A stretch of DNA of 29,429 nt, from NCBI GenBank assembly GCA_035544375.1, contig DATKFK010001020.1, positions 1-29,429 of the forward strand, given 5' to 3'. A program made the position numbers and the translations under genes. The stretch comes from Thermoanaerobaculia bacterium. Its GTDB lineage: Bacteria > Acidobacteriota > Thermoanaerobaculia > Multivoradales > UBA5704. The notes beneath the pieces are model-generated. The model saw only the letters and a program-made list of their open reading frames with translations. It did no database searches and was not told where the DNA came from. This document shows, in pieces, positions 3,614 through 29,429 of the stretch; the first letter of the stretch is position 1; every line of letters starts with the position of its first letter.

Positions 3614-4822
3614 GTGCAACCCGAGCCTTCGGACAGCCTCGAGCCGCGGCTCTCGGAGCTGCGCCGCCTGATCGCCGGCGAGGTCGTGCCGCTCGAACCG
3701 GAAATGCTCCGCGGCGGCTTCCAGGCCGTCGAGCCGCGCCTGCTCGCGTTGCGCGCCCGTATCCGCGCCCTGGGGCTCTTCGCGCCGCACCTGCCGCGCG
3801 CCTGGGGCGGCGCCGGGCTCAGCCTGCCCGAGCTGGCCAGGGTCGGCGAGATCCTCGGCTGGAGCCCGCTCGGCCACTACCTCTGCAACTGCCAGGCTCC
3901 GGACGCCGGCAACATGGAGCTGCTGCTGCGGCACGGCACCGGCGAACAGCGCGAGCGTTGGCTGGGGCCGCTGGCGCGCGGCGAGCTGCGCAGCTGCTTC
4001 GGCATGACCGAACCCGAGCTGCCGGGCTCGAACCCTGTCTGGATGGCGACCACGGCCCGCCGCGACTGCGGCGACTACGTCATCGACGGACACAAGTGGT
4101 TCACCTCCGGCGCCGACGGCGCCGCCTTCTGCATCGTGATGGCCGTCACCGACGCCGCCGCCGCGCCGCACGCCCGCGCCAGCATGCTGGTGGTGCCTGC
4201 CGGCACGCCGGGGTACGAGCTGGTGCGCAACCTGCCGGTGATGGGCGAGGCCGGCGGCGGCTGGGCCAGCCATGGCGAGGTGCGGCTGCGCGGCGTCCGC
4301 GTGCCTCTGGGCCACCGCATCGGCGCCGAAGGCGGCGGCTTCGCGCTCGCCCAGGAGCGGCTGGGGCCCGGCCGCATCCACCATTGCATGCGCTGGATCG
4401 GCATCTGCGAGCGGGCCTTCGACCTGATGTGCCGGCGGGCGGTGACGCGCGAGCTGTCCCCGGGCGAGACCCTCGCCTCTCGCCAGCTGGTGCAGGCCTG
4501 GGTGGCCGAGAGCCGCGCCGACATCGACGCTTCCCGCCTGCTGGTGCTGCGCACCGCGGAGCGCATCGAGCGCGAGGGCGCCGCGGCGGCGCGCGACGAC
4601 GTCTCGCTGATCAAGTTCCACGTCGCCGGCGTGATGCAGCGCGTTCTCGACCACGCGCTGCAGACGCACGGCGCCGCCGGCCTGCTCGACGGCACGCCGC
4701 TCGCCTTCTGGTGGCGCCACGAGCGCGGTGCGCGCATCTACGACGGCCCCGACGAGGTGCACAAGACCGCCGTCGCGCGGCGCATCCTCGCCGCCTATGC
4801 CCGCGGGGGGCCCGGCGCTTGA
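3614..4822 (+). CDS. Acyl-CoA dehydrogenase (ACAD10/ACAD11 C-terminal-like group)
   Basis: NCQAPDAGNMELL, SCFGMTEP..GSNP, IDGHKWFTSGA, QERLGPGRIHHCMR, RIYDGPDEVH. Start uncertain: GTG 3614 after GGAGGG, or ATG 3575. Confidence 0.9.
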   Translation: MQPEPSDSLEPRLSELRRLIAGEVVPLEPEMLRGGFQAVEPRLLALRARIRALGLFAPHLPRAWGGAGLSLPELARVGEILGWSPLGHYLCNCQAPDAGNMELLLRHGTGEQRERWLGPLARGELRSCFGMTEPELPGSNPVWMATTARRDCGDYVIDGHKWFTSGADGAAFCIVMAVTDAAAAPHARASMLVVPAGTPGYELVRNLPVMGEAGGGWASHGEVRLRGVRVPLGHRIGAEGGGFALAQERLGPGRIHHCMRWIGICERAFDLMCRRAVTRELSPGETLASRQLVQAWVAESRADIDASRLLVLRTAERIEREGAAAARDDVSLIKFHVAGVMQRVLDHALQTHGAAGLLDGTPLAFWWRHERGARIYDGPDEVHKTAVARRILAAYARGGPGA

Positions 4823-6003: not shown

Positions 6004-6016
6004 GGGGCGGGCAGTC

Positions 6017-8266: not shown

Positions 8267-8743
8267 ATGAGCCAAGCCGCGCGGACCTCGAAGACCCTGC
8301 TCTGCACCTCGGCGATCATCGCGGCCCTGTCCGCGGGCGCCGCCACCGGCATCGCCAACGCCGCCGATCACCCCAACCTGCAGCCCGGGAGCTGGGAGAC
8401 CTCGATGACCATGGAGATGGCGGGCATGCCGGCGGGCATGCCGGCGCGCCCGCCGATCACCACCACCCACTGCATCAAGGCGGACCAGGTCAAGGACAAC
8501 CAATCCCTCGCCGACAGCATGCAGACGAATTCCAAGAGCAAGTGCAAGGTCGCGGACGTCAAGTTCGAGAGTGACAAGCTCTCCTACAGCTTCACCTGCG
8601 ACAGCGGCGCCAGCGGCACCTCCGAGCTGGTCTTCGGCGGCACCACCTACGAGGGCACGACCAAGATCTCGGTCCCCGGCCACGGCAACGGGCCGATGAC
8701 GATGACCCAGCACTTCAAGTCCAAGCGGGTCGGCGACTGCTGA
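8267..8743 (+). CDS. Secreted DUF3617-like protein (158 aa)
   Basis: Signal peptide (..GIANA|ADH), LQPGSWET, THCI, KCKV, SFTC, and C-terminal KRVGDC, the DUF3617 pattern. SD-like AAGGGGG precedes ATG 8267. Confidence 0.8.
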   Translation: MSQAARTSKTLLCTSAIIAALSAGAATGIANAADHPNLQPGSWETSMTMEMAGMPAGMPARPPITTTHCIKADQVKDNQSLADSMQTNSKSKCKVADVKFESDKLSYSFTCDSGASGTSELVFGGTTYEGTTKISVPGHGNGPMTMTQHFKSKRVGDC

Positions 8744-8815
8744 GCGAACCCAGCCCTCCGGAGGGGCCGGCTCGACGCGGGCGCACGACTGGCGGGTCCG
8801 GGTGCTCGAAGAGCG

Positions 8816-11062
8816 ATGAAAGGCAGCCTGTCGCCGTCCCGCTCCATCGGGCTCGAGGCGAGCCGCTGGCGGTGGCTCGTCCTGGCCGCGACGGTTGCGT
8901 TCCAGGGCTGGCTCCTCCTGCCCGAGCTGGCACGCCCCGTCACTCCACTCAACGACGACGCTTTCCACATCGCCACGGCGCTCCACGTTCGCGAGGTCCT
9001 GCAGCGCCGCCCGGCCAGCGCACTTGATCCCTGGTTCTCGTACTGGTCGCTCGGTTACCCGCTCCTCCACGCCTACCAGCCGCTCGCCCCCCTGGTCACC
9101 GGGGCGCTCGGCTGCTTCGCCCCGGAGGCGCGCTTCATCGCGCTGTACCAGGCGCTGAAGCTGCTGCTCCTGCTCGCCTTTCCGCTCTGCGTCTACCTCG
9201 GCGCGCGCTGGTTGGAGCTCGACGACGCCGCGGCGCTCGGCGCCGCCCTGGTCGCGCCGCTGGTCGCGACCGACGGCCTGTTCGGCCTCGACTACGGCTC
9301 CTACCTGTGGCGCGGCACCGGCCTCTACACCCAGCTATGGGCCAGCTGCCTGCTGCCGCTGGCGATCGGACGCTCGTGGGCGGCGCTGCGCGGGCGCGCC
9401 GGCGCGCTCGCCGCCGCGGCGCTGCTCGCCCTCACCTTCCTTGGCCACGCCATCTACGGCTACATTGCCGTCCTGAGCCTCGCCCTCGCCGCCGGCCTGC
9501 TCCTGCGCTCGGTGGGCCCGCGGACGGTCCTCCGCCGCGCCGCGCCGGTCCTGGGTCTCGCCGGGGCGATGGTTGCCTTCTTCGTCGTGCCGATGCTGCT
9601 CGACGCGGCGGCCATCAATCGCTCGCGCTGGGAGCCCACGTGGAAGTGGGACTCGTTCGGGGCCCGGCAGGTGCTGGAGCGTCTCGGCGGCGGCGAGCTG
9701 TTCGACCACGGGCGCCTGCCGGTCCTGACCGCCCTCCTCGCCGCCGGCCTGGTCCTCGCCTTGCGCCGGGGAGCGGCCCGTGGCGAGCGTTTCGTCGGCT
9801 TTGGGTTCCTCGCCTGGCTGGCGCTCTACTTCGGCCGCCCCACCTGGGGCGCCTCCCTCTACGCTCTCGGCATCACGGCTGACGTTCCGCTGCATCGCCT
9901 GATCGGCGGCGTGCACCTTTTCGGCATCCTGCTTGCCGGGCTGGCGCTCGGGCGGGGGGCCGCCCGCCTGGCGGAGCGCCGGCGGGGAGCGTGGCGATGG
10001 GCCGTCCTGGCCGCGGCCCTGCTGCTGCTGGCGCCGGCGGCCGGCGAGCGCATCCGCTACGTCCACCAGGGCCTCGTCTGGCTGCGTGCCAGCGAAGCCG
10101 CCTTGACGGCCGCGGCCCCTGACGTGGCGGCGCTCCACCGGCGCCTCGCCGAGCTGCAGGAGGCGCAGCCCGGCCGTATCTACCCTGGCCTGGCGGCGCG
10201 CTGGGGCGGCAGGTTCAAGATCGGCGAGGTGCGGGTCTTCGACCTGCTGAGCCTTTGGCGGCTGGACGCGGTGGCCTATCTCTTCCATGCCATGTCGCTG
10301 CCCTCGGACGTCATGGTCGAGTTCGACGAGGACCGCCCGGCGGCCTACGACGCCCTGGACGTGCGCTACGTGGTCATGGACAGCCGCCGCACGCCGCCCC
10401 CATTCCTGCAACCCCTGGCCTCGTGCGGCCGCTTCCAGGTCTACGGCGGGCCTTCGTCGGGCAGGATCGGCCTCGGCGCCCTGGGGTTCGTCTTCGCCGG
10501 GCGGCGCGACGAGGTCTACGGGATCGCCTCCGCCTGGCTCGAGAGCGGGCTGCCGGCGGCACGGGTCTATGGCGAGATCGACCTCCGGCCGGGCGAGCGC
10601 CGCGGCCTGCCCGTCCTGCGGCGATGGGACCTGCTGCCCGAGGCCAGCCGGCTCGCCGCGGCGCCCCCGGGCGAGGTCCGCGACGTCCGGCGCGACGGCG
10701 ACGACTGGACGGCCGAGGTCGACCCCGGCGCCCCGGCGGTGGTCGTCCTCAAGGAGACGTTCCATCCCTCCTGGCGGGCCGAGGTGGACGGCAAGCCCAC
10801 GCCCACCCTGCAGGTGACGCCGGGCTTCGTCGCGGTGGCCGTCGGCGGCGGCCGCCACCACATCGCCTTCCGCTACCGCCCGAGCCGTCTCAAGCTGGGA
10901 CTTTTCCTGCTGGGCGTGGCGGCGCCGTTGCTCTGCCTGGCGGCGCCGCGCGCCTGGCGCCGGCCTCCGGACCCCGCCGGCAAGCGGCCTGATCCACGGC
11001 GAGCCGCCACGAAGAACCGGGCCGCCCCGGCCCCGCGCGAGCGGGACCGGAACGGCGAGTGA
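8816..11062 (+). CDS. GT-C-type multi-pass membrane glycosyltransferase (YfhO / PTPS-related membrane protein-like)
   Basis: About 12 hydrophobic helices. Acidic NDD motif in the loop after TM1, then DPWFSYWSLGYPLLHAYQPL. C-terminal ETFHPSWRAEVDG...GGGRHHIAFRYRP plus a final TM, typical of YfhO-like proteins. Confidence 0.75.
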   Translation: MKGSLSPSRSIGLEASRWRWLVLAATVAFQGWLLLPELARPVTPLNDDAFHIATALHVREVLQRRPASALDPWFSYWSLGYPLLHAYQPLAPLVTGALGCFAPEARFIALYQALKLLLLLAFPLCVYLGARWLELDDAAALGAALVAPLVATDGLFGLDYGSYLWRGTGLYTQLWASCLLPLAIGRSWAALRGRAGALAAAALLALTFLGHAIYGYIAVLSLALAAGLLLRSVGPRTVLRRAAPVLGLAGAMVAFFVVPMLLDAAAINRSRWEPTWKWDSFGARQVLERLGGGELFDHGRLPVLTALLAAGLVLALRRGAARGERFVGFGFLAWLALYFGRPTWGASLYALGITADVPLHRLIGGVHLFGILLAGLALGRGAARLAERRRGAWRWAVLAAALLLLAPAAGERIRYVHQGLVWLRASEAALTAAAPDVAALHRRLAELQEAQPGRIYPGLAARWGGRFKIGEVRVFDLLSLWRLDAVAYLFHAMSLPSDVMVEFDEDRPAAYDALDVRYVVMDSRRTPPPFLQPLASCGRFQVYGGPSSGRIGLGALGFVFAGRRDEVYGIASAWLESGLPAARVYGEIDLRPGERRGLPVLRRWDLLPEASRLAAAPPGEVRDVRRDGDDWTAEVDPGAPAVVVLKETFHPSWRAEVDGKPTPTLQVTPGFVAVAVGGGRHHIAFRYRPSRLKLGLFLLGVAAPLLCLAAPRAWRRPPDPAGKRPDPRRAATKNRAAPAPRERDRNGE

Positions 11063-11074
11063 GCTGTCGACAGG

Positions 11075-12487
11075 TCAGTTGTTGGTGACGATGCAAGCGA
11101 CGCCGACGTTCTTGTCGCCGTGGGCCGTGCAGCTGCCGGCGGCGACGGTCGCGCTGAGCGGCGACGTTCGATCCGCGCCGCCGGTGTAGCCGCAGACGCA
11201 GACGCTCGTCGCCAGGACCCGGCCGTCGCTCAAGGTGGCGTTGCCCCCGTTGTTCGTCGTGCCGGTCAAGCCGAAGGTGGCCTGCGCGATGAGCGACCAT
11301 TCGCAGCCCGTTCCGCACGTGCTCCCGGTGACGCCCTGGGTGGTGCTCGGCGCGCCTGGCGTGTTGCCCAGGTTCGAGGCGACCAGGCTGATGAAGCCCG
11401 ACCCCTGGTGTTGCACTCCGTCGTTCAGGTTGTAGGTGGTCCCACTCGACCATGTCTGCTGCCAGCTGACGAGACCCGACGGACCGCTCGGACCCGACGG
11501 ACCGGAGGGACCGGACGGACCCGAAGGACCGGAGGGGCCCAGCGGACCCGAGGGGCCGGAGGGGCCCGAAGGTCCGGAAGGGCCGGAAGGACCCGAGGGA
11601 CCGGAGGGGCCCGAGGGGCCGGAGGCTCCCAGCGCTGCCACCAGCGACCACTCGCAGCCGCTGCCGCAGCTGCTGCCGGCGACGCCCTCGGTGGTGGTCG
11701 GGTCGCCAGGCGTGTTGCCCATGTTCGAGGCAATCAGGCTGATGTAGCTCGAGCCCAGGTATTGCACGGCATCGTCGACGTTGTAGGAGGTCGAGCCCGA
11801 CCAGGTCTGCTGCCAGTTGATCCCCACCGGCCCCGTCGGCCCGCTCGGCCCCGACGGGCCGGAAGGACCGGAGGGACCGGAGCCACCCGACGTCCCCGGG
11901 TCACCCTGGGGGCCTGATGGGCCGGAGGGGCCGGAAGGACCCGAGGGTCCCGAGGGCCCGGAGGGGCCGGAGGGGCCGCTGGGACCCGTCGGCCCGACGC
12001 TGTAGTAGCCGGTGACGTCGATGATCGCGTGGACCGTTCCGGAGCCCTGCATTCCGATGACGATTTGCAGGTCGGTGTCCGTTGCCAGGGTGACGGGAGC
12101 GAGCGGCACGACCGCGCCGTTGGCGATCACCACCTCGGCGACGTCGTAGTTGATCGTCGAGGGGTCGTTCAGACCGGGCGTGACGTTGGCGGGATAGAGG
12201 CGCATGTCGCCCGCCCTGGACGGAAACACGATCGTCAAGTTGGCGACCATCGCCTCGGCGCCGTTGGGGATGCTGCAATTGCCCTGGATGCGGAAGAAGT
12301 GGGACGGTCCGGCCGATAGCGGATTGCCGTTGGTCTGCGGCCCCACGGTCCGCGTATCGAAGACCCGGCAAGGCTTGACGCTGGTAAAGACCAGATCGCC
12401 GGCGATGACCTGCGACGTCGCCGGCAAGCTGGCCGCCGCCAGGAGGCCGAGGAAAAGGACTGCGCTGCGCTTGGGCCTGAGGTGCAC
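11075..12487 (-). CDS. Secreted collagen-like surface protein: signal peptide, PCR-DTR domain, two (GPS)n tracts, two 62-aa Trp/Cys repeats, Cys-rich C-terminal domain
   Basis: GTG start after SD AAGGAGG, hydrophobic signal peptide, ~19 and ~18 Gly-X-Y triplets, and repeats of form WQQTWS..T.YN..D.VQ..GS..ISL.ASN.GNTPG...CG.GCEWSL. Confidence 0.85.
11471..11629 (-). repeat. Collagen-like tract 2 (GAS, 8xGPS, GPL, 7xGPS, GLV)
   Basis: 9-bp-period repeat with scrambled synonymous codons. Confidence 0.9.
11822..11995 (-). repeat. Collagen-like tract 1 (GPT, 8x[15 protein letters not shown], 4xGPS, GPT, GPV)
   Basis: 9-bp-period repeat with scrambled synonymous codons. Confidence 0.9.
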
Positions 12488-13193
12488 GACGTCCCTCCTT
12501 CGAGTTTAGCGGCGGGTGGGCGCCATCGGGTGAAGCCTCCTGGCCAGCCACCACTGAATCTCTGGCCGGGAAGCAGATAACGTGCGAAGGATGGAGCCAT
12601 CACCGTGCTACCTGCGATGATTCGGAAAAGCGTACTAAACAAACATTATTCCTGTTGCAGAGGCCGGCGCAAGCCTATTTGATCATTGATCTTAATGCCT
12701 GTTCGATAGAACTTTTTAAGTTTAGCGTTGTTTTCTCTCGGAATAACCGTGCCAGCGTAACTAAAATTAAAACTCCTTCACAAGCTTTTTAAGCCTGCTC
12801 GCTTTTTATATTCCCGCGGGTGGTGTATGGCGGGATTCGCATACCTCATCACCCTATCGCATTTTCCGCTGGCGGCGCCCTCTTGCGTCGGCGATGCCAT
12901 ATCCACACGCCTCATATCCTTACTGTTCAGGAATAAATTTTTCAGCCACAATCACATTTTTCCTACAGCACAGAAATTAGATCTTCCTCGCGGACTTGTC
13001 GGACCCAGCGACCTCCTCTCGCAGCCGCGCCCTGCAGACGGCCCTCTCTTCAGCCGGAGCCGTTCCCTCGTCGTAACTGGCAACAGCCACAACGACTACT
13101 CCGTTAACTTAAACTCTGGGTCCTGCGGGCGATCGATCTGCGTGCGGCGCTCATCGGCCGGCGACCGGCGCGTCCCCACACGCCGCGCGGTTG

Positions 13194-14195
13194 TCAGGAC
13201 TCTTCGACGGCGATCACCGCGGCACCCTGGAAGCTGCCGGCGCGCAAGGCCGCGAGAGCGGCGTTGGCCTCGGCGAGGGGGAAGACGGTGACCTCGCTGT
13301 GGATGGGCACCGTCGGGGCGAGTGCCAGGAACTCCTCGCCGTCGCGCCGGGTGAGGTTGGCCACCGAGCGCACCACCCGCTCGCCCCACAGGATGTCGTA
13401 GGGAAACGCCGGGATGTCGCTCATGTGGATGCCGGCGCAGACCACCGTGCCGCCTTTCGCCACCGCGCGCAGGGCGGCCGGCACCAGCTCGCCGGCGGGC
13501 GCGAAGATGAGCGCCGCGTCGAGGGGCTCGGGCGGCGCCTCGCCGGCGGCTCCCGCCCACTCGGCGCCGAGCCGGCGCGCGAACCGCTGCCCGGCCTCGT
13601 CGCCGGCGCGGGTGAAGGCGAACACCCGGCGCCCCTGGTGGCGCGCCACCTGGACGAGGATGTGGGCCGCGGCGCCGAAACCGTAGAAGCCCAGCCGCTC
13701 GGCCTCCCGCGGCGTCCCAGCCAGCCGCAGGGCGCGGAAGCCGATCAGCCCGGCGCAGAGCAGCGGCGCGGCTTCCAGGTCGGGATAGCCGGCGGGAATG
13801 GGAAAGCAGAAACGCTCGTCGGCGGCCGTCATCTCGGCGTAGCCGCCGTCCAGCTGGTAGCCGGTGAAGCGGGCGCGGTCGCACAGGTTCTCGCGTCCCG
13901 AAAGGCAGTAGCGGCAGGTGCCGTCCGTCCACCCCAGCCAGGGCACCCCGACCCGGTCGCCGATCCGGAAGCGGCTGGCGCCCTCGCCCAGGGCCGCGAC
14001 GGTGCCGACGATCTGGTGGCCGATGACCAGCGGCAGCTTGGGGTCCGGCAGCTCGCCGTCCACCACGTGCAGGTCGGTGCGGCAGACCCCGCAGGCATGC
14101 ACCCGCAGGAGCACCTGCCCCGGTCCCGCCGCCGGCGCCGCGATCTCGCGCGGCCGCAGCGGCTCCCCGACCCGTTCGAGCACCATCGCGCGCAC
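13194..14195 (-). CDS. Zn-dependent alcohol dehydrogenase (AdhP/cinnamyl-ADH-like MDR family)
   Basis: CGVCRTDLH, GHQIVG, CRYCLSGRENLC, PLLCAGLIG, GFYGFGAAA. Confidence 0.92.
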   Translation of the reverse strand: MRAMVLERVGEPLRPREIAAPAAGPGQVLLRVHACGVCRTDLHVVDGELPDPKLPLVIGHQIVGTVAALGEGASRFRIGDRVGVPWLGWTDGTCRYCLSGRENLCDRARFTGYQLDGGYAEMTAADERFCFPIPAGYPDLEAAPLLCAGLIGFRALRLAGTPREAERLGFYGFGAAAHILVQVARHQGRRVFAFTRAGDEAGQRFARRLGAEWAGAAGEAPPEPLDAALIFAPAGELVPAALRAVAKGGTVVCAGIHMSDIPAFPYDILWGERVVRSVANLTRRDGEEFLALAPTVPIHSEVTVFPLAEANAALAALRAGSFQGAAVIAVEES

Positions 14196-14303
14196 CCTGC
14201 AACTCTATCCCCACACCCGCCCCGGGGCAGGGCCGACGGGCCGTGAGATAGGATGGAAACAGTCAATGACGCAAGCCAGCGACTCTCGGCACCGGCCCGC
14301 GGC

Positions 14304-16613
14304 ATGAAGCTCTCGGTGGTCGTCGCCGCCTACGACGAGGCGGCGTGCATCGAGCCCCTCACCCGCCGCCTGGCGGCCGCCCTGGCGGCGATCCCGGACT
14401 GCTCCTGGGAGCTCATCTTCGTCGTCGAGGGCGAGGACGGCACCCGCGAGGTCCTGGAGCGGCTGGGCCGGCAGGCCGCTCCCCTGCGCATCCTCTATCG
14501 GCGCGAGCCTGCCGGCCTCGGCGCGGCGTTCCGGCGCGGCTTCGCCGCCGTGGCGGCAGACGCCGACTACGTGGTGACCCTGGACGCCGACCTCAACCAC
14601 CAGCCTGAGGAGATCCCGCGCCTGCTGGCCGCCGCCCGGGAGCTGGACTGCGACGTCCTGATCGGTTCCCGCTTCGTCGCCGGCGCCGAGATCACCGGCA
14701 CTCCGCCCTGGAAGCGCCTGCTCAGCGGCGCCGTGAACCGGCTCATGACCCTCTGGTACGGGCTGCGGGCGCACGACAAGACCTCGGGCTTCCGCGTCTA
14801 CCGTGCGCGGGTCCTGCGCGAGGTGGCGTACGAGAACGACCGCTTCGCCTTCCTCCCCGAGCTGTTGATCCGCGCCGGCGCCGCCGGCTTCCGCATCGCC
14901 GAGGCGCCGATCCATTTCCGCTATCGCCGCGAGGGGTGGTCCAAGATGGCATTCTGGCCGACCGTCGCGAGCTACCTGGCGCTCCTGTGGCGGCAAGGCG
15001 ATCGCTGGACCTGGAGCACGCTCCTGCTCGCCGCCGCCGGCGCGTCGCTGCGCGTCGGGATGACCTTCCCCGTCTACAGGTACCCGGGCGACGCCGACTG
15101 CCTGCTGACCGGCATCACCGCGCTTCGCCTGGCCGGCGGCCACCTGCCGGTCTTCTTCGCCAGCCAGCGCATCGGGGCGATCGCCAGCTACGTGGCCGCC
15201 CCGTTCGTGCTGGTCTTCGGCGCGTCGCGCACCGCGCTGGCGGCCAGCACGCTGCTGCTTGGCCTGCTGCTGCTCGCGGCGTGGTGCCTCTTCCTGCGCG
15301 AGCTCCTCGGCCGCCGGCTCGCCCTGGCCGCCCTGCCGTTTGCCGCCGTGCCGCCCGCGTTCGTCAGCCACTGGAGCGCCCTGCCGAACGGCTATCCGGA
15401 GACGTTGCTGCTCGGTGCGGCGACGCTCTGGCTGGCGGCGCGCCTGGCGCGCGGCGCCGGCGGCCGGCGCGATTTCCTCGGCTTCGGCCTCGCCGCCGGG
15501 TTGGGATGGTGGACCTCGTTGCTGACTCTCGGCTGCACGGTGCCGGCGGCGGCATGGCTGGCGTGGCGACGACCGCGCCTGCTGTCCAATGCCCGCTTCC
15601 TGGCCCTCGCCGCTCTCGGCTTCCTGCTCGGGGCCTCCCCCTGGATCGCCTACCATCTCCGCTACCGGCAGCGGCCGTTCGCAGGCAATTACGGCGTCGA
15701 GCCGGTGCATGGCATCGCCGCCATGCTCGGCGCCGGCCGGCGGCTGATCGTCGAGATGCTGCCCGAGCTGATCGCCGCCGCACCCAATCCATCTCCTGCC
15801 AGTCCCTTGCAGCCGCTGCTGCGCGTCCCCGCGCTGCTGATCGCCGCCGCGGCGATCGTCTTCTGCCTGTTCGTGGCGCCGCTTTCGCGGCGGCGCGCCG
15901 CCACCTCTCGCGCCGCTGCGCCCGCCGCCGAAAGCGCCGAGAGGTCGGCGTGGCCGCTCTGCGCCCTCGTGCTCCTCGTCACCCTCGGCATCAACCTGGT
16001 GTCCGCGGCCAGCGCGGAGCAAGGTCCCTTCCTGCCGGTGCGCTACCTGCTGCCGATGGCTCTCGTGGTGCCGGCGATGCTCGCGCTCTTCCTCCTGCCC
16101 ATCGGCCGGCGCTCGCCGGTCCTGGCTCTCATCCTCGCCGGCGTGGTGCTGGTCTTCGACGTGGCGGGCACCGCCCTGCCGTGGACCGAGTCGCGCCGGG
16201 GCTGGGAGAAGGAGGCGGACGACGACCAGCGGGCGCTCGCGGTCCTCGAGCGGGAAAAGGTGGAGGTGGTGGTGGGCTCGTACTGGTCCGTCTACTCATT
16301 CAACTTCCTGTCGGGCGAGACGATTCGCGGCATCCCGATCGAGTCGATGGACGACCTGCGCAAGGAGGCGGAACGGCTGCCGGTTGCAACCCCGGTGCGG
16401 CTGGCCCCACTGGGGCGCCCCCCCAAGGTGGTCGCCTGCTGGCTGGCCAGGGCCGGCGTGGCCGGCACCCCTCGGGTCATCGGCGGCGACTATGCGGCCC
16501 TGCTGCCGGCGCGGCAGATTGCAGGCAAGGCCGTCCAGGAGCTGCGCAACCGGCTCGCCGCGGCCTGGCCGGGCCAGCTCCCCTCCGCTGCCGACTGTCC
16601 CGGGCAGCGCTAG
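14304..16613 (+). CDS. Fusion of a DPM1-like GT2 (polyprenol-phosphate glycosyltransferase) and a GT-C-type membrane glycosyltransferase
   Basis: N-terminal ~235 aa: SVVVAAYDE, GLGAAFRRG, TLDADLNHQP (DxD), GSRF, DKTSGFRVY. Then ~11 TM helices with GDAD after TM1 and a C-terminal periplasmic domain. Start set at MKLSVVV (ATG 14304). Confidence 0.82.
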   Translation: MKLSVVVAAYDEAACIEPLTRRLAAALAAIPDCSWELIFVVEGEDGTREVLERLGRQAAPLRILYRREPAGLGAAFRRGFAAVAADADYVVTLDADLNHQPEEIPRLLAAARELDCDVLIGSRFVAGAEITGTPPWKRLLSGAVNRLMTLWYGLRAHDKTSGFRVYRARVLREVAYENDRFAFLPELLIRAGAAGFRIAEAPIHFRYRREGWSKMAFWPTVASYLALLWRQGDRWTWSTLLLAAAGASLRVGMTFPVYRYPGDADCLLTGITALRLAGGHLPVFFASQRIGAIASYVAAPFVLVFGASRTALAASTLLLGLLLLAAWCLFLRELLGRRLALAALPFAAVPPAFVSHWSALPNGYPETLLLGAATLWLAARLARGAGGRRDFLGFGLAAGLGWWTSLLTLGCTVPAAAWLAWRRPRLLSNARFLALAALGFLLGASPWIAYHLRYRQRPFAGNYGVEPVHGIAAMLGAGRRLIVEMLPELIAAAPNPSPASPLQPLLRVPALLIAAAAIVFCLFVAPLSRRRAATSRAAAPAAESAERSAWPLCALVLLVTLGINLVSAASAEQGPFLPVRYLLPMALVVPAMLALFLLPIGRRSPVLALILAGVVLVFDVAGTALPWTESRRGWEKEADDDQRALAVLEREKVEVVVGSYWSVYSFNFLSGETIRGIPIESMDDLRKEAERLPVATPVRLAPLGRPPKVVACWLARAGVAGTPRVIGGDYAALLPARQIAGKAVQELRNRLAAAWPGQLPSAADCPGQR

Positions 16614-16770
16614 TGGCCCGCTAGCGTCGCCAAGGGCTCCGGCCGGGCGGGCCGGCCGCGCGGGCCTTGGCGGCGCCTTGCTTTACTGGCATAAAAATCT
16701 CCTTCCCGGCTCGATCGGAGCCCCATACATGGCCCAATGTCATATGCGCGGCGCGCTTCTTTTTACCGGG

Positions 16771-16800
16771 TTGACACCTTTTTTTCCGCGGTGGTATGAA
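16771..16800 (+). promoter_or_regulatory. Candidate sigma-70-type promoter for the NlpC/P60 gene
   Basis: Perfect TTGACA (16771-16776), 18-bp spacer, and extended -10-like TGnTATGAA, inside an AT-rich patch. Confidence 0.45.
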
Positions 16801-16967
16801 GGGCACCCTGTCAGCGTCCTGTTCGCCTGCGAATGGGCCGAGCCGCTTGTCGAGCGGCTCCTCCTGAAGGCTCCGCCTTGGCTCGACCTGCTTGGTCAGG
16901 TCGAGCCGGCCATCGAGCGGCTGGGTGCAAGCGCGCCTGCCGCCCCTTTGTTGGACCGGAGGCCCGG

Positions 16968-17825
16968 ATGGTTGGACGGCCGTCGAAAGCTTCGCTGCTT
17001 CTGCTGGCCGCCGCGGCCGCTGCCGCCGTCGGCGCCTCCCGGCCGGCCGCCGCCCAACCCCAGCGCCTTCTCTTCGACCTCCCCACCCCCGCCGCCGCCA
17101 CCCTGGCCCCCAGCATCTCGACCGCACCGGCCAACCCCGGCGCCTCGATCACCCCGAGCGCCCCGGCCGACCTTGCCGATGCCGAGATCCTCGACCCCAC
17201 CGAGGCCGCCGCCGAGCCGCTGCCCCCGGTCGCCGCGCCCTTGCAGGCGCCCCTCCCGCCGGTGGCGCGCCAGCAGCCGCTCGACTCCGGCGAGCTCGGC
17301 ATCGAGTATCAGCTCTCCGTGCATGACGCCGAATCCTTCCTCGACCGCCTCGCGGCGCGCTGGAAGCGGCTGGTCGAGCAGGCCATGACCTACCTCGGAA
17401 CGCCCTATCGCCGGGGCGGCACCTCGCGGCGCGGCCTGGACTGCTCCGGCCTGGTGGGAGCGGTCTATGGCGAGCAGGGTCTGGAGTTGCCGCGCACCGC
17501 GGCGGAGCAGTTCCGCGAGGGTGCGCCGGTCCTCGAAAGCGACCTGCGGCCTGGCGACCTGGTGTTCTTCCGCGACACCTCCAAGCGCGGCATCTCCCAC
17601 GTCGGCATCTACATCGGCGACGGGCGCTTCCTCCATGCCGCCGGCCGCCGCCACGGCGTGATCGTCAGCGAGCTCTCGCGCCCTTACTACCAGCTCCGCT
17701 TCGCCGGCGCGCGCCGGCCGGCGCCCGATCCCGCCGCCGCCGATCGCCAGGGCAGCCAGCAGGCCGCGAGCGGCGCCGCCCCGGTGGCGACGGCCGCGGC
17801 GACGCTCGCCGCCGCACCCCGCTAG
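16968..17825 (+). CDS. Secreted NlpC/P60 (peptidase C40) cell-wall hydrolase
   Basis: Signal peptide, Pro/Ala-rich linker, YLGTPYRRGG, GLDCSGLV (catalytic Cys), GDLVFF, HVGIY, FLHA. SD GGAGG precedes ATG 16968. Confidence 0.9.
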   Translation: MVGRPSKASLLLLAAAAAAAVGASRPAAAQPQRLLFDLPTPAAATLAPSISTAPANPGASITPSAPADLADAEILDPTEAAAEPLPPVAAPLQAPLPPVARQQPLDSGELGIEYQLSVHDAESFLDRLAARWKRLVEQAMTYLGTPYRRGGTSRRGLDCSGLVGAVYGEQGLELPRTAAEQFREGAPVLESDLRPGDLVFFRDTSKRGISHVGIYIGDGRFLHAAGRRHGVIVSELSRPYYQLRFAGARRPAPDPAAADRQGSQQAASGAAPVATAAATLAAAPR

Positions 17826-17873
17826 ACGCCCGCGCTCTATCAGCCCAGCCGTTGGCAGCCTGCGGCCGCGGGA

Positions 17874-19238
17874 CTACTTCTCCACCCCTCCCGTCTTCCA
17901 GATCTGGCCGCCTTTCATCACGAAGCTGACGCGCTCCGTCACCCTGATGTCGGCCAGGGGGTCGCCGGGGACCGCGACGAGGTCCGCCTGCTTGCCCGCC
18001 TCGAGGGTGCCGATCTGGCCCGGGAGGCCGAGCAGGTCGGCCGCGGCGTCCATCGCGCTGCGCAGGGCGGCCGCCGGCGCCATGCCATGATCGACCAGCA
18101 GCTTGAACTCCTTGGCATTGAGCCCGTGCGGGCTGACCGCCGAGTCCGTGCCGAAGGCGATCTTGACCCCCATCCTGAGAGCGTTGCGGAACATCGCCGA
18201 GCGCTGCGCCACGGCCGCCGCGGCCTTGGCGGCGATCTCGGGCGGATAGTGGCGGGGCACCACCCGGCCGCTCGCGTACTCGCCTGCCAGCAGCGTCGGC
18301 ACCAGCCAGGTGCCGCGCTCTTTCATCATGCGCAACCCCTCCTCGTCGAGGAACGATCCATGCTCGATCGAGTCGATGCCGGCGCGGATCGCCTCCTTCG
18401 CGCCGGTGACGCCGTGGGCGTGCGCCGCGGCCCGCTTGTGCAGGCGGTGGGCCTCGTCGACCAGCGCGTCCATCTCGGCCTGGGTGACCTGCGGCGTATC
18501 GACCTCGTCGGACAGCGACAGCACGCCGCCGGTGGCGCCGACCTTGATCACGTCGGCGCCGTACTTGACGGCGAACCGCACCGCGTCGCGGAACTGGTCG
18601 GGACCGCTGGCGATGCCGCGCTCGAAGCCGGGCTCTTCGCCGAGCTGCCGGTAGGCGAAGCCCGCGCCGTCGGCATGCCCGCCCCGCGCCCCCAGCATGT
18701 GCACCGAGACCAGCATCCGTGGCCCCGGGATGACGCCGTCGCGGATGGCGTTGCGCAACCCGACGTCGATGAAGTCGCTGCTGCCGAGGTCGCGCACGGT
18801 GGTGAAACCAGCCATCAGCGTGTGCCGGGCGTTGGCCGTGGCGCGGATCGCCGACTCCGCGACGTCGCGGCGCAGGCGGGTGATGGCGTCGCGGTTGTAG
18901 TCGTCGGAAGCCTCGAACGACAGGTGCACGTGGCAGTCGATCAGGCCCGGCATCAGGGTGACGTCGCCCAGGTCGATCGTCTGTGCGCCGGCCGGGACCG
19001 CCACCCCGGCGCCGGCCGCCTGGATCTTGCCGCCGGCCACCACCACCACGCCGTCGCGCACCCAGTGGTCCGAGCGGCCATCGAACAGCCGCGCCGCCTT
19101 GAGCGCCAGCACGGGAGGCGAAGCCTCGCCGGCGCTCCCCTTGCCCTGCCCCTCGGCGCGCGACAGCGGCGGCAGCGCGACGCCGCACGCGAACAGGACG
19201 ACCGCAAGACGCAGGGCATGGCTCCCTCGGTGGCTCAT
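17874..19238 (-). CDS. Secreted metal-dependent amidohydrolase (prolidase-like subgroup)
   Basis: Signal peptide, PGLIDCHVHL (HxH), IKVGATGG, AAHAHG, IEHG, FGTD. SD AAGGAGGAG precedes ATG 19238. Confidence 0.9.
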   Translation of the reverse strand: MSHRGSHALRLAVVLFACGVALPPLSRAEGQGKGSAGEASPPVLALKAARLFDGRSDHWVRDGVVVVAGGKIQAAGAGVAVPAGAQTIDLGDVTLMPGLIDCHVHLSFEASDDYNRDAITRLRRDVAESAIRATANARHTLMAGFTTVRDLGSSDFIDVGLRNAIRDGVIPGPRMLVSVHMLGARGGHADGAGFAYRQLGEEPGFERGIASGPDQFRDAVRFAVKYGADVIKVGATGGVLSLSDEVDTPQVTQAEMDALVDEAHRLHKRAAAHAHGVTGAKEAIRAGIDSIEHGSFLDEEGLRMMKERGTWLVPTLLAGEYASGRVVPRHYPPEIAAKAAAAVAQRSAMFRNALRMGVKIAFGTDSAVSPHGLNAKEFKLLVDHGMAPAAALRSAMDAAADLLGLPGQIGTLEAGKQADLVAVPGDPLADIRVTERVSFVMKGGQIWKTGGVEK

Positions 19239-19415
19239 CAGGCTCCTCCTTCGTGGCAAGGCAGGTCAGGCGCGATCCTATCCGCCTCCGCCCCGCCAAT
19301 CCAGGGGCCTGCCGGCGGGGTCGTGGGGACTGCCCCACCACCCTGGCGGGGGAGGCGAGCCGGCGCGCTGGCAGGCCGGCGAGCGGGCGGGGCGCCGGGC
19401 GGATAGACTCCCCCC

Positions 19416-19901
19416 ATGCGCGTCGGCGTCCTCGCGGATACCCATGGCATGCTGCGCCCGGCCGTTCTCGACCGGCTCGCGGGCTGCGACCTCCTGCTGC
19501 ACGCCGGCGATGTCGGAGATGTGGGCGACGTGGGCGAGGCCGCCACCGGCGAGGAGCCGATCCTCGTCCGCCTGGCTCGCCTGGCGCCGGTGCAAGCCGT
19601 GCGCGGCAACTGCGACGGCGGCGAGCTGGCGGCGGCCCTGCCGGCGGCGCTGGCCGGCGAGCTCGCCGGGCTGCCCTACCGCATGACCCATCGCCGCGAG
19701 GACGTCGCCCCGGCCTGGGTCCGCGACTCGCGGCTGATCGTCTTCGGCCACTCCCACCGGCCGGAGCTCGAATGGCACGGCGGGTGCCTGCTGCTCAACC
19801 CGGGGAGCTGCGGCGCCAGGCGGTTTCGCCTGCCGCTGACCGTGGCGGTGGTGAGAGTGGAGGGCGACCGCCTGATCCCCGAGATCCTGGCGGTGGAGTA
19901 A
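19416..19901 (+). CDS. Metallophosphoesterase, YfcE/MJ0936 family
   Basis: LADTHG, LHAGDV, VRGNCD, MTH, FGHSH, LLNPGS motifs. Confidence 0.9.
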   Translation: MRVGVLADTHGMLRPAVLDRLAGCDLLLHAGDVGDVGDVGEAATGEEPILVRLARLAPVQAVRGNCDGGELAAALPAALAGELAGLPYRMTHRREDVAPAWVRDSRLIVFGHSHRPELEWHGGCLLLNPGSCGARRFRLPLTVAVVRVEGDRLIPEILAVE

Positions 19902-19915
19902 AGGTCTCCGTCCTT

Positions 19916-22024
<2,109 letters not shown>

Positions 22025-22141
22025 CGGCAAGCTCCTGTTGGCGAAACCCGCGGGGCCTTCCGCGCCCGCGGCCGGTGACACCCACGTGACATTCTACTCC
22101 GGCGTCACGCCGGCGGCGCCGGCGCCCCCCGTTGACTCCGG

Positions 22142-24283: not shown

Positions 24284-24296
24284 CGGCCCCTGGCTA

Positions 24297-24773
24297 CTAC
24301 TGGAAGTAGCCGGTCACGTCGACGATCGCGTGGACGGTCCCCGGACCCTGCATGCCGATGACGATCTGCAGGTCCTTGTCCGTGGACAGGGAAACCGGCG
24401 CCAGCGGCACGATCGCCCCGTTGGCGAGCGCCACTTCCCCGGCGTCGTAGTTGATCGTCGAGGGATCGGTCGCATGCGGGGTGACGTTCGCGGGATAGAG
24501 CCGCATGTCGCCCTGCCGTGACGGCGAGACGATCGTCAGGTTGAGAGTCACCGCCTGGGCGCCGTTGGGAATGCCGCAATAGCCCTGGATCCTGAAGAAG
24601 ACGGAAGGGCCGCCGTTCAAAGGGCTGCCGTTGGTCTGTGGTCCCGTGGTCCGGGTGTCGAAGACCCGGCACGGAGTCACGGCAAAGTACTGAAAGGGCC
24701 CGCCGGCCCACGCGGGAACCGAAGCGCACACGGCGAGCAACAAAGCGATCCACGCAGCTTTTCTAGCCCTCAT
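24297..24773 (-). CDS. Small secreted protein (158 aa) consisting of a signal peptide and one PCR-DTR domain
   Basis: Signal peptide (..VPAWA|GG), then TPCRVFDTR...GYCGIP...DVTGYFQ. SD AAAAGGAG; tandem TAG TAG stop. Confidence 0.85.
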   Translation of the reverse strand: MRARKAAWIALLLAVCASVPAWAGGPFQYFAVTPCRVFDTRTTGPQTNGSPLNGGPSVFFRIQGYCGIPNGAQAVTLNLTIVSPSRQGDMRLYPANVTPHATDPSTINYDAGEVALANGAIVPLAPVSLSTDKDLQIVIGMQGPGTVHAIVDVTGYFQ

Positions 24774-24798
24774 AGCGGGACTCCTTTTGGGTAGGCGT

Positions 24799-24828
24799 AC
24801 TCTATACGAGACTGGATGCTGGGGTCAA
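24799..24828 (-). promoter_or_regulatory. Candidate sigma-70-type promoter for the standalone PCR-DTR gene
   Basis: Minus strand TTGACC-N18-TAGAGT, ending ~25 bp before the ATG. Confidence 0.4.
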
Positions 24829-24927
24829 ATCCGTGGCTCGCCGTCGCGCCGTTGACAGCGATCCATCCTTGCCTGGTGGCGACATGCCAATTGTGTACCA
24901 GCTTGGGAGCCAGGGCAATGACGGAAC

Positions 24928-27612: not shown

Positions 27613-27623
27613 GTCCGCGCCGC

Positions 27624-28391
27624 TCACGCGCCGGGCCGGCGCAGCCTCTGGACGAGCAGCGCGAAGGTCACCTTGAGGACGTACTGGAACGCCTCGAGCC
27701 GGCCGATCGACGAGCGCCCTCCCTGCCGGACGCGGAAGGCAGCCGGCACCTCCGCGATCCGGAAGCCGCCGCGGGCGAGCATCAGGATCGATTCCGGCTC
27801 CGGATAGTCCTCGGGGTACGCGCTCGCCAGGAACCGCACCGCCCGCTGGTTGAAGGCGCGGAACCCCGAGGTCGGATCGGTCACCGCCTGGCCCGAGAGC
27901 GCCCTGACCAGGAAGGAGAGCCAGGCGATCCCGGCGCGGCGGGCGAGCGCCGGCCGCGCGCCGGCAGGGCCGCCCGCGCCGGCCGCGCCGCCCGCGCCAG
28001 CGCCTCCGGCGACTCCGGCGCCAGGTGCCGGCGGCAGCAGGAAGCGCGAGCCGATGACGAGGTCGGCCGTGCCGGCGCGCAACTCGTCGAGCAGCCGCGC
28101 CGCGTCGGCCGGATCGTGCTGGCCGTCGCCGTCCAGCCGCACCGCGTAGAGGAAGCCGCGGTCCAGGGCATGGAGGAAGCCGGTCTGCTCGGCGGCGGCG
28201 ACGCCCGAGTTGTAGGGCAGGTCCACCACCCGCGCGCCGGCCGCCCGCCCGACCTCGCCGGTGCGGTCCTCCGAGCCGTCGTTGACCACCAGCACCTCGA
28301 GCTCGGGGCAGGAAGCCGCCAGGCACCGCAGCACGCCAGGCAAGCTCGCCTCTTCGTTGTAGGCGAGGATGATGGCGAGCGTGTCCCGCAC
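27624..28391 (-). CDS. DPM1-like GT2 (polyprenol-phosphate glycosyltransferase)
   Basis: AYNEE, VNDGSED, NSGV, RLDGDGQHDP (DxD), IGSRF, DPTSGFRA, YPE. Confidence 0.9.
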   Translation of the reverse strand: MRDTLAIILAYNEEASLPGVLRCLAASCPELEVLVVNDGSEDRTGEVGRAAGARVVDLPYNSGVAAAEQTGFLHALDRGFLYAVRLDGDGQHDPADAARLLDELRAGTADLVIGSRFLLPPAPGAGVAGGAGAGGAAGAGGPAGARPALARRAGIAWLSFLVRALSGQAVTDPTSGFRAFNQRAVRFLASAYPEDYPEPESILMLARGGFRIAEVPAAFRVRQGGRSSIGRLEAFQYVLKVTFALLVQRLRRPGA

Positions 28392-28445
28392 GGCGCTACG
28401 GCGGTGGTCGGGGCTCGGCGTCCCGCTGGCCCGCCCCCGCCGACC

Positions 28446-29429
28446 TCAGTTGAAATAACCGTTGACGTCGATGATCAACTGCACCGTGCCGCTGCCGCTG
28501 AACGACGGCACGACGGCGAGACCGCCGGTGCCGTCGGTGGCGAGCGGGAGCACGGCGTTGTTGGCGCGGGTCCGGCCGGCGTCGAAGTTGATGGTGCTGG
28601 TCAGCGGCAGGTTGCTGCAAGTTCCGGGTCCGAAGCGCAGGCTACCGAGCGCCGACGGGCCGGTCACCGTGATGTTGACCGACACCGCGTGCGCCGCCAG
28701 CGGCACGCCGCAGATCCCGCCGACCGGGAAGACCCGCTCCACGCCGCCGCTCAGGGCGGGACCGCCCTGCGGTCCGTTGGGGTTGCGGGTGTCGGCGACC
28801 CGGCAGGGAGTGACGGTGTAGAAGTGGAGGTTCGACGCCGCCACCGTGCACGAACCCGAGCACCCCGGGGTGCCAGGCGCCACGCCGGTGCGCTGCGTGC
28901 CCTGGTGAAACAGCCCCCAGGGGGGCGTGCTCGAGCCGCTGTACGGGTTCCAGACGTTGATCAGCGTGTTGTTCGCGGTGCCGGAGTCGGCTGCTGAAAC
29001 GGCGACGACCTCGATCTTGGCCCCCGACGCCGACGGGTCTTCCAGGTCCCCCACCGCAACCCCGGAAAGCGTGCTCGGGGTGTAGAAGGCGTAGACCCCT
29101 GCCGGGTGGGTGCCGTCGTCGGTCAGCAGCGCGCCGGTGCGCGAGAACACGGCGACGCTGCCGTTGGTCGGCACCAGGACGTCGAGCCCGTCGCCCAAGG
29201 CGTCGGCGATGATCGGCGGCCCGGCGCTCAACGTGGCGCCGAAGAAGTCCTTGGGCGTCGCCACCCACAGCTGCGTGCCGTCACCCTTGAAGGCGTAGAC
29301 GTGGAAGGTGCTGCTCGACTCGGTGTTGTCGGCGGTCACCACCACGTCGAGCTTGCCGTCGCCGGTGAGGTCGCCCAGGGCCGGGCCGTTGAAGGCGCCG
29401 CTCTGCCCGACGATGGACACCGGCCAGCC
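28446..29429 (-). CDS. Partial (runs off window end): FG-GAP/VCBS-repeat beta-propeller protein with a C-terminal PCR-DTR domain
   Basis: Frame stays open to 29429 (GWP-VSIVG). PALGDLTGDGKLDVVV, IIADALGDGLDV, VAVGDLED repeats, PWGLFH closure motif, then TPCRVADTR...GICGVP...IIDVNGYFN. Confidence 0.85.
   Translation of the reverse strand, partial: GWPVSIVGQSGAFNGPALGDLTGDGKLDVVVTADNTESSSTFHVYAFKGDGTQLWVATPKDFFGATLSAGPPIIADALGDGLDVLVPTNGSVAVFSRTGALLTDDGTHPAGVYAFYTPSTLSGVAVGDLEDPSASGAKIEVVAVSAADSGTANNTLINVWNPYSGSSTPPWGLFHQGTQRTGVAPGTPGCSGSCTVAASNLHFYTVTPCRVADTRNPNGPQGGPALSGGVERVFPVGGICGVPLAAHAVSVNITVTGPSALGSLRFGPGTCSNLPLTSTINFDAGRTRANNAVLPLATDGTGGLAVVPSFSGSGTVQLIIDVNGYFN

Follow-up and report, generated by a model that had tools for sequence, protein, structure and literature searches.

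Three-component transmembrane glycosylation systems consist of a GT2 glycosyltransferase of the GtrB/CsbB type, a GtrA/GtcA flippase and a GT-C glycosyltransferase such as YfhO or GtlB (PMC8035078, PMC5836110). We analysed a 29,429-nucleotide contig from a soil Thermoanaerobaculia bacterium (Acidobacteriota; contig DATKFK010001020.1), hereafter the window, in which DPM1/GtrB-like GT2 domains lie beside four GT-C enzymes and beside three secreted proteins that share one jelly-roll domain. The GT-C enzymes are a YfhO-like protein, a protein in which a GT2 and a GT-C are fused (the fusion), and two membrane proteins that we call J and L; the secreted proteins are a collagen-like protein, a small protein made of the jelly-roll alone (the domain-only protein) and an FG-GAP protein. 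We tentatively favour, at a little under even chances, the reading that this is a lineage-specific, multi-component transmembrane glycosylation locus, genetically tied to jelly-roll surface proteins and putatively O-glycosylating them.

The likeness to the three-component systems extends to an acidic motif in the first outer loop of the GT-C, seen here in J and the YfhO-like protein, and to the predicted order of events, in which polyprenyl phosphate is charged in the cytoplasm, flipped and used for transfer outside. Unlike those systems, the window encodes four GT-Cs of four families, one of them fused to a GT2, and the locus has a DUF2304 protein instead of a GtrA-family member, for which this genome gave no match. 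The known acceptors of the three-component systems are teichoic acids, O-antigen and wall polysaccharides of other phyla, whereas the conserved neighbours here are secreted proteins.

In Streptococcus mutans, the adhesin Cnm is modified by the Pgf machinery (PgfS, PgfM1, PgfE, PgfM2), in which PgfS is a GT2 and PgfM2 is YfhO-like (PMC5856776); elsewhere in streptococci, regions rich in Ser/Thr are glycosylated by GtrB together with PgtC2 (PMC12041528). The window resembles the Pgf machinery in combining a GT2 with a YfhO-like GT-C that would modify a surface protein rich in repeated Ser/Thr, and in weak NCBIfam matches of its GT2 and YfhO-like proteins to PgfS and PgfM2. These matches score 16-39 bits against equivalog cut-offs of 500-1500, so the window proteins are not PgfS/PgfM2 orthologues, and the candidate substrate would be a (GPS)n fibre of collagen-like type, headed by a jelly-roll, rather than an LPXTG adhesin. 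The host itself is probably a diderm.

In protein O-mannosylation a GT39 PMT works with a polyprenyl-phosphate-mannose synthase (actinobacterial Pmt/Ppm1, eukaryotic PMT/DPM1), and in pilA-tfpW loci the pilin gene is followed by that of the GT-C TfpW, which glycosylates the pilin. Here two of the GT-Cs, J and the fusion, resemble PMT_2, with a DE motif in loop 1 of J; a DPM1-like donor synthase is present, and the order of a substrate-like gene immediately followed by a GT-C gene mirrors pilA-tfpW. Unlike these examples, J falls under every Pfam PMT/PMT_2 threshold and the domain-only protein lacks a Ser/Thr-rich acceptor stretch.

In the Bacillus exosporium nap (PDB 3twi, 9h38, 8d02 and 7r5i), the collagen-like glycoprotein BclA has a C1q/TNF-like trimerising jelly-roll and is anchored via ExsFA/BxpB. 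Its GPT repeats are O-glycosylated, as far as is known by soluble nucleotide-sugar transferases rather than by GT-Cs outside the membrane. The window shares with BclA a G-P-(S/T) collagen stalk joined to a jelly-roll (here a predicted trimer) and nearby glycosyltransferase genes, and our jelly-roll model gave alignments with the C-terminal domain of BclA (Z 5.7-6.4) and, weakly, with BxpB/ExsFA, all at background-level scores; it differs in that the jelly-roll is N-terminal and sequence similarity is absent. It is by analogy with the pgf genes and Cnm, GtrB/PgtC2, BclA and pilA-tfpW that we infer O-glycosylation of the neighbouring proteins, above all of the collagen-like repeats.

Glycosyltransferases of the locus

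The enzymes encoded in the window are parts of a lipid-carrier-dependent periplasmic glycosylation route. Both GT2 domains, called DPM1-like in a first-pass annotation made from the DNA alone, proved closest to polyprenyl-phosphate sugar synthases. They match PF00535 at 7e-23 (fusion) and 2.1e-20 (soluble GT2); their best solved matches are the Pyrococcus dolichyl-phosphate mannose synthase 5mlz (5.8e-23 for the fusion) and ArnC; and their best NCBIfam models, all under the equivalog cut-offs, are the dolichyl-P-hexose transferase, PpgS (2.2e-21 for the soluble GT2) and ArnC.

The four GT-C assignments held as well, each on its own kind of evidence: predicted structure for L, Atlas neighbours for J, PMT_2 for the fusion and PF09586 for the YfhO-like protein. 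A Foldseek and AlphaFold comparison, proposed in the first-pass annotation as a check of the GT-C fold and run for L, confirmed that fold: the AlphaFold2 model (predicted local distance difference test, pLDDT, 85.5; predicted template-modelling score, pTM, 0.80) found GT-C enzymes at all of PDB ranks 1-22, with E-values from 1.2e-6 to 5.7e-3 (AftA, STT3, AftD, PglB, ArnT, EmbB, DPY19 and Pmt1/2). L belongs to a family that is restricted to Thermoanaerobaculia and has no Pfam model; its C-terminal half is periplasmic and beta-rich. Its first 200 residues contain no paired acidic motif, but only the nearly invariant D125, E134 and D166. J gave no Pfam match even at E 10 and is assigned through its ESM Atlas feature and structure neighbours only, which form PMT_2/GT39 clusters in which 24-100% of the neighbours carry PMT_2; an SDE motif stands at residues 33-35, in the first periplasmic loop after transmembrane helix 1 (TM1).

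The fusion joins an N-terminal DPM1-like GT2 of the polyprenyl-phosphate sugar synthase type to a C-terminal PMT_2-type GT-C, which scored 24.1 bits against PF13231 (PMT_2) by hmmscan and 29 bits in the genome search, with a cut-off of 26.1. The YfhO-like protein is polytopic, has an NDD acidic motif at residues 46-48, after TM1, and matches PF09586 at 29.2 bits (cut-off 28.5) over the last 48 model positions only. Nearly all of its 68 homologues carry PF09586, with PF10131 or PF20176 also annotated among them; the YfhO assignment, marginal for the window protein alone, is consistent across the homologues. J, L and the YfhO-like protein have no paralogues in the source genome (phmmer, E up to 1e-3).

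The STT3 and PglB fold matches of L, together with an invariant N-x-T of the jelly-roll, raised the candidate function of an oligosaccharyltransferase. It was rejected, because a scan of the four GT-Cs found neither WWD nor W[WY]DxG, so that the WWDxG motif is lacking, and because modelling places the N-x-T in a beta-strand of the predicted trimer contact.

GT-C genes are abundant in these bacteria: PMT_2 matches number at least 28 in the 7-Mb source genome and 17-31 in relatives, a large GT-C expansion. GT2 and PMT_2 are fused both ways, GT2 then PMT_2 in the window (14253-16613) and PMT_2 then GT2 in genome G166 (L030:11467-14463), which points to independent joining of a donor synthase to its GT-C. 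The J orthologue of G255 (G255:C10:71043-72629) is read through two in-frame TGA codons and may be a pseudogene or reflect assembly errors.

In the scheme that we favour, the GT2s would charge polyprenyl phosphate with sugar on the cytoplasmic face, and the four GT-Cs would use the lipid-linked sugars on the periplasmic face to O-glycosylate the neighbouring proteins after export. This would be clearest for the YfhO-like enzyme, whose targets would be Ser/Thr in the (GPS/GPT)n repeats of the collagen-like protein; the domain-only and FG-GAP proteins would be substrates of J and the fusion. The jelly-roll would trimerise the surface proteins and nucleate the collagen triple helix. S-adenosylmethionine (SAM) methyltransferases encoded beyond the window end may modify the sugar, and the DUF2304 protein may help in lipid-sugar handling. 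The longer contig of a near-identical strain (L036) encodes, at 4689-7104 and divergently upstream of the FG-GAP gene, two SAM methyltransferases (a Trm112p-like zinc ribbon is present in one of them) and the DUF2304 three-helix membrane protein, the only kind of small membrane protein found at the locus. Methyltransferases recur in nearly all related loci (L027, L030, L055-L058).

The jelly-roll domain and its carriers

The proposal that the three secreted proteins carry one domain was borne out by an alignment of about 135 residues, with 71% and 41% identity to the collagen-protein copy and hidden Markov model E-values of 1e-44 to 5e-73; 46 columns are invariant among the three copies, both cysteines included. 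All three proteins have Sec-type signal peptides, that of the FG-GAP protein being read from L036, where the protein is 665 aa at full length and has the jelly-roll at its extreme C-terminus (nt 28449-28847 of the window). In the domain-only protein of 158 aa, which has 194 homologues in Acidobacteriota/Thermoanaerobaculia metagenomes, the jelly-roll is the entire mature chain. In the collagen-like protein the signal peptide is followed by an N-terminal jelly-roll (aa 25-165, nt 11993-12415), two alternations of a (GPS)n stretch with a carbohydrate-binding module (CBM) of the 5/12 type, and a Cys-containing C-terminal region; Pfam Collagen (PF01391) matches at 4.5e-15 over the two (GPS)n stretches and CBM_5_12 at 1.5e-8. 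With G-X-Y repeats and a flanking predicted trimerisation domain, this protein qualifies as a bacterial collagen-like protein. The collagen-like proteins have their CBM5/12-type modules (chitin or cellulose binding) between collagen segments and look like trimeric carbohydrate-binding fibres; locus L060 encodes two long paralogues in tandem (8347-10734 and 11071-13317).

The first-pass annotation could not name the domain, and neither Pfam nor NCBIfam has a match to it over the 3 window proteins, 18 paralogues and 10 remote relatives. The domain-only protein matched neither database even at E 10, and proteins built solely of three domain copies still had no Pfam match. A profile search of 1.84 billion representatives returned 33,468 proteins at E up to 1e-3, counted as representatives at 50% identity, and 7,521 at E up to 1e-30. 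Rather than a small local family, the domain is a promiscuous, mostly C-terminal module, with about 25 carrier proteins here and as many as 76 in relatives. Nearly all of the roughly 25 copies in the source genome end no more than 2 residues from the stop codon of open reading frames (ORFs) of 250-1,100 aa. The domain is joined to GH44, to Phi_1, to a TIG-containing reprolysin-like protease and to propellers of the BNR, PQQ, RCC1, SBBP and FG-GAP types; it precedes its partners in only two proteins, a phosphoesterase and one with DUF1800/CHRD. Across the phylum sample, it occurs in 43 of 151 Thermoanaerobaculia genomes and in none of about 110 outside the class, with 2, 17, 22, 37 and 76 copies in five near-complete genomes. 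The genome counts take in one unpublished genome, G023, on which no specific claim rests.

By functional analogy only, this use resembles that of C-terminal cargo tags and wall-binding modules such as the type IX secretion system (T9SS) C-terminal domain (CTD), S-layer homology (SLH) modules and PEP-CTERM: one extreme-C-terminal module on dozens of unrelated exoproteins, with lineage-specific expansion. The domain differs from them in being larger (about 130 aa), a jelly-roll and a predicted trimer, in occurring also N-terminally, alone or in 3, 6 or 9 tandem copies, and in that no dedicated sorting enzyme was identified. Pfam and NCBIfam gave no match to T9SS Por_Secre_tail, PEP-CTERM or other known tags in the window proteins, their paralogues or remote relatives.

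AlphaFold2 models the domain-only protein as a jelly-roll (pLDDT 89). Its best structural neighbour is the trimeric Bdellovibrio fibre tip Bd2133 (VIA search, Z 8.6), followed by CBM36, CBM35, CBM6, CBM22, the BclA head, Ena subunits and viral coats, all of them at the level that the comparison tool calls common (Z under about 8). Foldseek template-modelling (TM) scores reach at most 0.41 against the PDB and at most 0.41 against Swiss-Prot models (a halolysin C-terminal extension), and the C1q/TNF comparison likewise stays at background level (TNFSF4 and pGP3, TM 0.29-0.35). The fold matches are generic, so no function can be drawn from them. AlphaFold DB clusters place the module, at 22-35% identity, in multi-domain secreted proteins with CHAP, Rv2525c-like/DUF1906, S74, CotH and PKD domains.

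The domain probably forms a homotrimer, as judged from modelling. The prediction for three copies of residues 24-158 scored 0.88, against 0.42 for the best control; the mark used was reached by 21 of 30 proteins solved as one-chain pairs and by none of 23 solved as single chains, a calibration from which the three-copy job differs. The predicted interface holds 10 of the 16 invariant residues. Among the 150 best representatives (P0157-P0306), 139 carry 3 (120 proteins), 6 (17) or 9 (2) copies and 9 carry 4 or 5, and tandem copies nearly always in multiples of three suggest single-chain pseudo-trimers. Tandem arrays stand, for example, at G176:C1:955066-956323 and 1565782-1567036 and at G039:C15:90324-91514. 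A trimer would also account for the position of the domain beside a collagen triple helix. All 38 domains aligned contain the N-x-T (N78-x-T80 in the domain-only protein), which may be structural or ligand-binding rather than a sequon.

These features also suit a different reading, which we regard as possible and as somewhat less probable than protein O-glycosylation. The GT-C, GT2 and methyltransferase genes would build or decorate a non-protein envelope glycan or glycolipid, and the trimeric, lectin-like jelly-roll would bind it as a docking tag that retains dozens of exoproteins at the cell surface, much as SLH domains hold on to a secondary cell-wall polymer, with the domain-only protein as a free anchor. 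The module stands at the extreme C-terminus of about 20 unrelated exoproteins here (propellers, the reprolysin-like protease, GH44), relatives carry up to 76 copies, and remote AlphaFold DB relatives are fused to cell-wall enzymes, e.g. CHAP and Rv2525c-like/DUF1906. CBM36, CBM35, CBM6, CBM22, trimeric fibre tips and the BclA C-terminal domain are structural neighbours at Z 6-8.6, although matches under about 8 are at the common level. The invariant polar residues R36, N78, T80, N118 and D152 lie at predicted protomer interfaces, where trimeric jelly-roll lectins would place their sugar sites, and the loci combine three to five GT-Cs with methyltransferases and GDSL-like genes, a composition like that of glycan-assembly loci. 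Glycan docking accommodates the promiscuity of the tag, its C-terminal position and its CBM-like fold better than O-glycosylation does, but it leaves the isolated YfhO-like/collagen module of L060, which reads more easily as enzyme and substrate. Moreover, tagged genes are not generally co-located with GT-C genes, and domain-rich genomes such as G139 were without J, L or fusion orthologues in searches with these queries.

A related and more speculative proposal, to which we give a rather low probability, is that the jelly-roll is a new kind of trimeric surface-display tag. Tag-only trimers or a GT-C-made glycan would form a docking layer on which exoproteins (propellers, proteases, GH44, collagen-like chitin-binding fibres) are mounted by co-trimerising with it or binding it through their terminal tag copy.

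Gene pairs and gene order

The expectation that domain genes at large would be enriched near GT-C genes was rejected. In the five near-complete genomes, 14 copies lay within 10 kb of a PMT_2 match against 12.8 expected, and 30 within 20 kb against 24.4, in a test that uses PF13231, which misses GT-Cs such as J and L; in the source genome, no other domain-bearing contig has a PMT_2 or DPM1-like GT2 match. With bulk proximity at expectation, the domain family at large is not GT-C-linked. The coupling proposed from the window therefore stands only in part: the bulk of the domain copies does not follow it, and two specific pairs, domain-only gene with GT-C gene and YfhO-like gene with collagen-like gene, recur.

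A verified GT-C lies within 8 kb of the domain-only gene in 11 of 17 contexts, which cover at least 3 GTDB families and metagenome contigs (12 of 17 if the P0021 contig is counted, where a 729-aa unnamed protein in the position of J is unverifiable). From PMT_2 density, about 1.3 of 17 would be expected by our own Poisson-form estimate. A Fisher test on the five near-complete genomes gave p = 5e-4; their phylogeny does not make them independent of one another, and since the contexts come from related genomes the counts overstate independence. In L027, L055 and L056 a J orthologue stands immediately downstream of the domain-only gene, and in G255 one is found at a distance of 3.7 kb. In G159 a PMT_2-like gene follows after 45 bp, and in G166, whose 6.6 Mb contain just two copies of the domain, the reverse-order PMT_2-GT2 fusion stands at 0.8 kb. 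L057, L058, G207 and G223 have a fusion orthologue or a PMT-like gene at 0.9-6 kb; fusion orthologues near the domain-only gene are those of L027, L057, L058, G159, G207 and G223. An L orthologue is present in L027. In L029, G219 and G259 only GT2 or other glycosyltransferases are near, and in G176 and G139 the nearest PMT_2 match is at about 14 kb. Every other genome in which an orthologue of J (2 of 2) or of the fusion (6 of 6) was found is domain-positive, against 42 of 150 overall.

The second pair is the YfhO-like gene converging on a collagen-like gene with an N-terminal jelly-roll, in 3 of 3 contexts (the window, L061 and L060). The gene table of L060 shows no glycosyltransferase family among the neighbours of the pair, several of which have no Pfam match. 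Contexts of the remote three-copy proteins P0240 and P0234 had no clear GT-C link.

Such pairs could arise without any functional coupling, if abundant GT-C and domain genes gather in variable envelope islands and adjacency is inherited synteny. The background of both gene classes is high, the bulk of domain copies is unenriched near PMT_2, housekeeping genes whose order is conserved in relatives run between the parts of the locus, and the positive contexts are related genomes rather than independent ones. We nevertheless consider this unlikely, as the pairings outlast changing surroundings: L027, L056, L058, G159 and G166 differ in gene content and order, the only two domain copies of G166 sit beside its PMT_2-GT2 fusion, and the YfhO-like/collagen pair moves as a unit into unrelated surroundings in L060.

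The 13-bp gap and the conserved order of domain-only gene then GT-C gene would also fit a domain-only protein that is a periplasmic subunit of the adjoining GT-C, holding or presenting the acceptor (a task of lectin-like domains in cis in EmbC and AftD), with the C-terminal copies as unrelated uses of the fold. A second protein for acceptor recognition has been proposed in a review for some smaller GT-Cs (PMC8035078), but J and L already have large periplasmic domains. The domain-only gene as regularly adjoins a gene for a protein with a C-terminal jelly-roll, often an FG-GAP protein: this is seen in G166, G176, L058 and the P0021 contig, within 8-10 kb in L027, L029 and L057, and in L056 with an FG-GAP gene within 8 kb whose C-terminus is off the locus. 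In G139, G259 and L029, moreover, it has no nearby GT-C. An accessory subunit seems improbable to us.

Several observations weigh against the favoured reading, in which the secreted proteins are substrates. An adjacent gene could equally well encode a binder of the product or a substrate, and several different GT-Cs at one locus are also consistent with a non-protein glycan assembled step by step. Most genes with the domain lie away from GT-C and GT2 genes, and orthologues of J and L were not found in most of the domain-rich genomes searched: with these queries, J occurs in one and L in none of the five that are near-complete. No GtrA-type flippase (PF04138) was matched in the whole genome (90% complete). 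The domain-only protein has no disordered segment rich in Ser/Thr, and a search for linkers of such composition ahead of the C-terminal domain copies, as a glycosylation signature, found none. Of the broader proposal in the first-pass annotation, a surface-protein family with dedicated lipid-linked glycosylation, the enzymes and the two conserved pairs are upheld, the bulk enrichment is not, and the glycosylation itself is putative.

The source genome is a 7-Mb metagenome bin of 1,232 contigs (90% complete), of which the window is the longest. Open frames are abundant in a window of 73% G+C, so genes were fixed by the third-codon-position GC profile (GC3) and by Pfam family searches on ORFs (Table 1).

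Table 1. Genes between positions 8816 and 29429 of the window.
Feature	Position	Strand	Basis or role
YfhO-like GT-C, 748 aa	8816-11062	+	PF09586, transmembrane and motif scan
Collagen/CBM_5_12 secreted protein, 470 aa	11075-12487	-	Translation, Pfam
Zinc alcohol dehydrogenase (ADH)	13194-14195	-	Intervening gene
GT2+PMT_2 fusion, 786 aa	14253-16613	+	Pfam
NlpC/P60	16833-17825	+	Intervening gene
Amidohydrolase	17874-19259	-	Intervening gene
Metallophosphoesterase	19416-19901	+	Intervening gene
Aconitase-family protein	19916-22081	-	Intervening gene
J, membrane protein, PMT_2/GT39-like GT-C, 713 aa	22142-24283	-	Atlas neighbours, motif
Domain-only secreted protein, 158 aa, signal peptide and one jelly-roll	24297-24773	-	Translation
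L, GT-C-fold membrane protein, 894 aa	24928-27612	-	AlphaFold2 and Foldseek
Soluble DPM1/PpgS-like GT2, 255 aa, putative polyprenyl-phosphate sugar synthase	27624-28391	-	Pfam, NCBIfam
FG-GAP protein, C-terminal 327 aa, running off the window	28446-29429	-	Translation, FG-GAP_3

The gaps reported in the first-pass annotation are exact: the YfhO-like and collagen-like genes converge 12 bp apart, and 13 bp separate the domain-only gene from J, 54 bp the FG-GAP gene from the soluble GT2 and 11 bp that GT2 from L. Equally, no Wzx, Wzy or Wza gene was seen among the window genes scanned for families. The 20-kb stretch is not one contiguous system, as the ADH, NlpC/P60, amidohydrolase, metallophosphoesterase and aconitase-family genes (13194-14195 and 16833-22081) interrupt it, and the syntenic housekeeping genes make up about one third of its length. 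We read the intervening genes from ADH to aconitase as backbone outside any system, since their order is kept in relatives that lack the inserted glycosyltransferase genes; the P0021 contig reads APH, PLD, DUF3617, ADH, NlpC/P60, FG-GAP, domain-only, J-like, metallophosphoesterase, aconitase. The aconitase-family protein has its Aconitase_C swivel domain N-terminal to the catalytic domains, and several relatives retain its gene next to one for J or a PMT_2-like protein, which most likely reflects backbone synteny.

The roughly 700-bp spacer upstream of the collagen-like gene (12488-13193) has about 50% G+C, compared with 73% for the window, and contains neither an Rfam match nor a convincing ORF. 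Either a promoter or regulatory function or an origin as an insertion scar of the YfhO-like/collagen module is possible. An ORF at 12827-13291 (+) in this AT-rich spacer was rejected as a gene, having no family match and a GC3 of about 0.55-0.65 against at least 0.9 in real genes, and Rfam found no RNA family anywhere in the window. At 845-1456 the window encodes a type IV pilin-like protein or type II secretion system (T2SS) pseudopilin (N_methyl and T2SSG), and in the related contig L055 an N_methyl gene likewise lies upstream of acyl-CoA dehydrogenase and APH genes. A small soil metatranscriptome yielded short exact contigs over the YfhO-like gene, J, L and housekeeping genes, a weak signal in which DNA carry-over is possible and operon structure is unreadable.

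Meaning for the Acidobacteriota

The enzymology of the locus is of a known kind. What is new is an unnamed domain family predicted to form trimers, a GT-C family (L) that is invisible to profiles, fusions of GT2 and GT-C in both orders, and two conserved protein-enzyme pairs in Acidobacteriota. With 33,468 representatives, the domain family is unmodelled by Pfam and NCBIfam, and its rule of trimers or tandem copies in threes should help to annotate tens of thousands of secreted proteins.

Acidobacteriota are a dominant, mostly uncultured soil phylum in which, to our knowledge, surface-protein glycosylation and exoprotein retention are uncharacterised. Two enzyme-partner pairs from the locus lend themselves to testing: J and its neighbour, the domain-only protein, and the YfhO-like GT-C and the collagen-like fibre. 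Were the jelly-roll a display tag, it would be an acidobacterial counterpart, built from other parts, of display through SLH and secondary-wall polymers or through the T9SS CTD and A-type lipopolysaccharide (A-LPS). If instead the proteins are glycosylated, as we tentatively favour, GT-C-dependent protein O-glycosylation, with its examples in Actinobacteria, streptococci and pilins, would extend to a new phylum and to collagen-like fibres.

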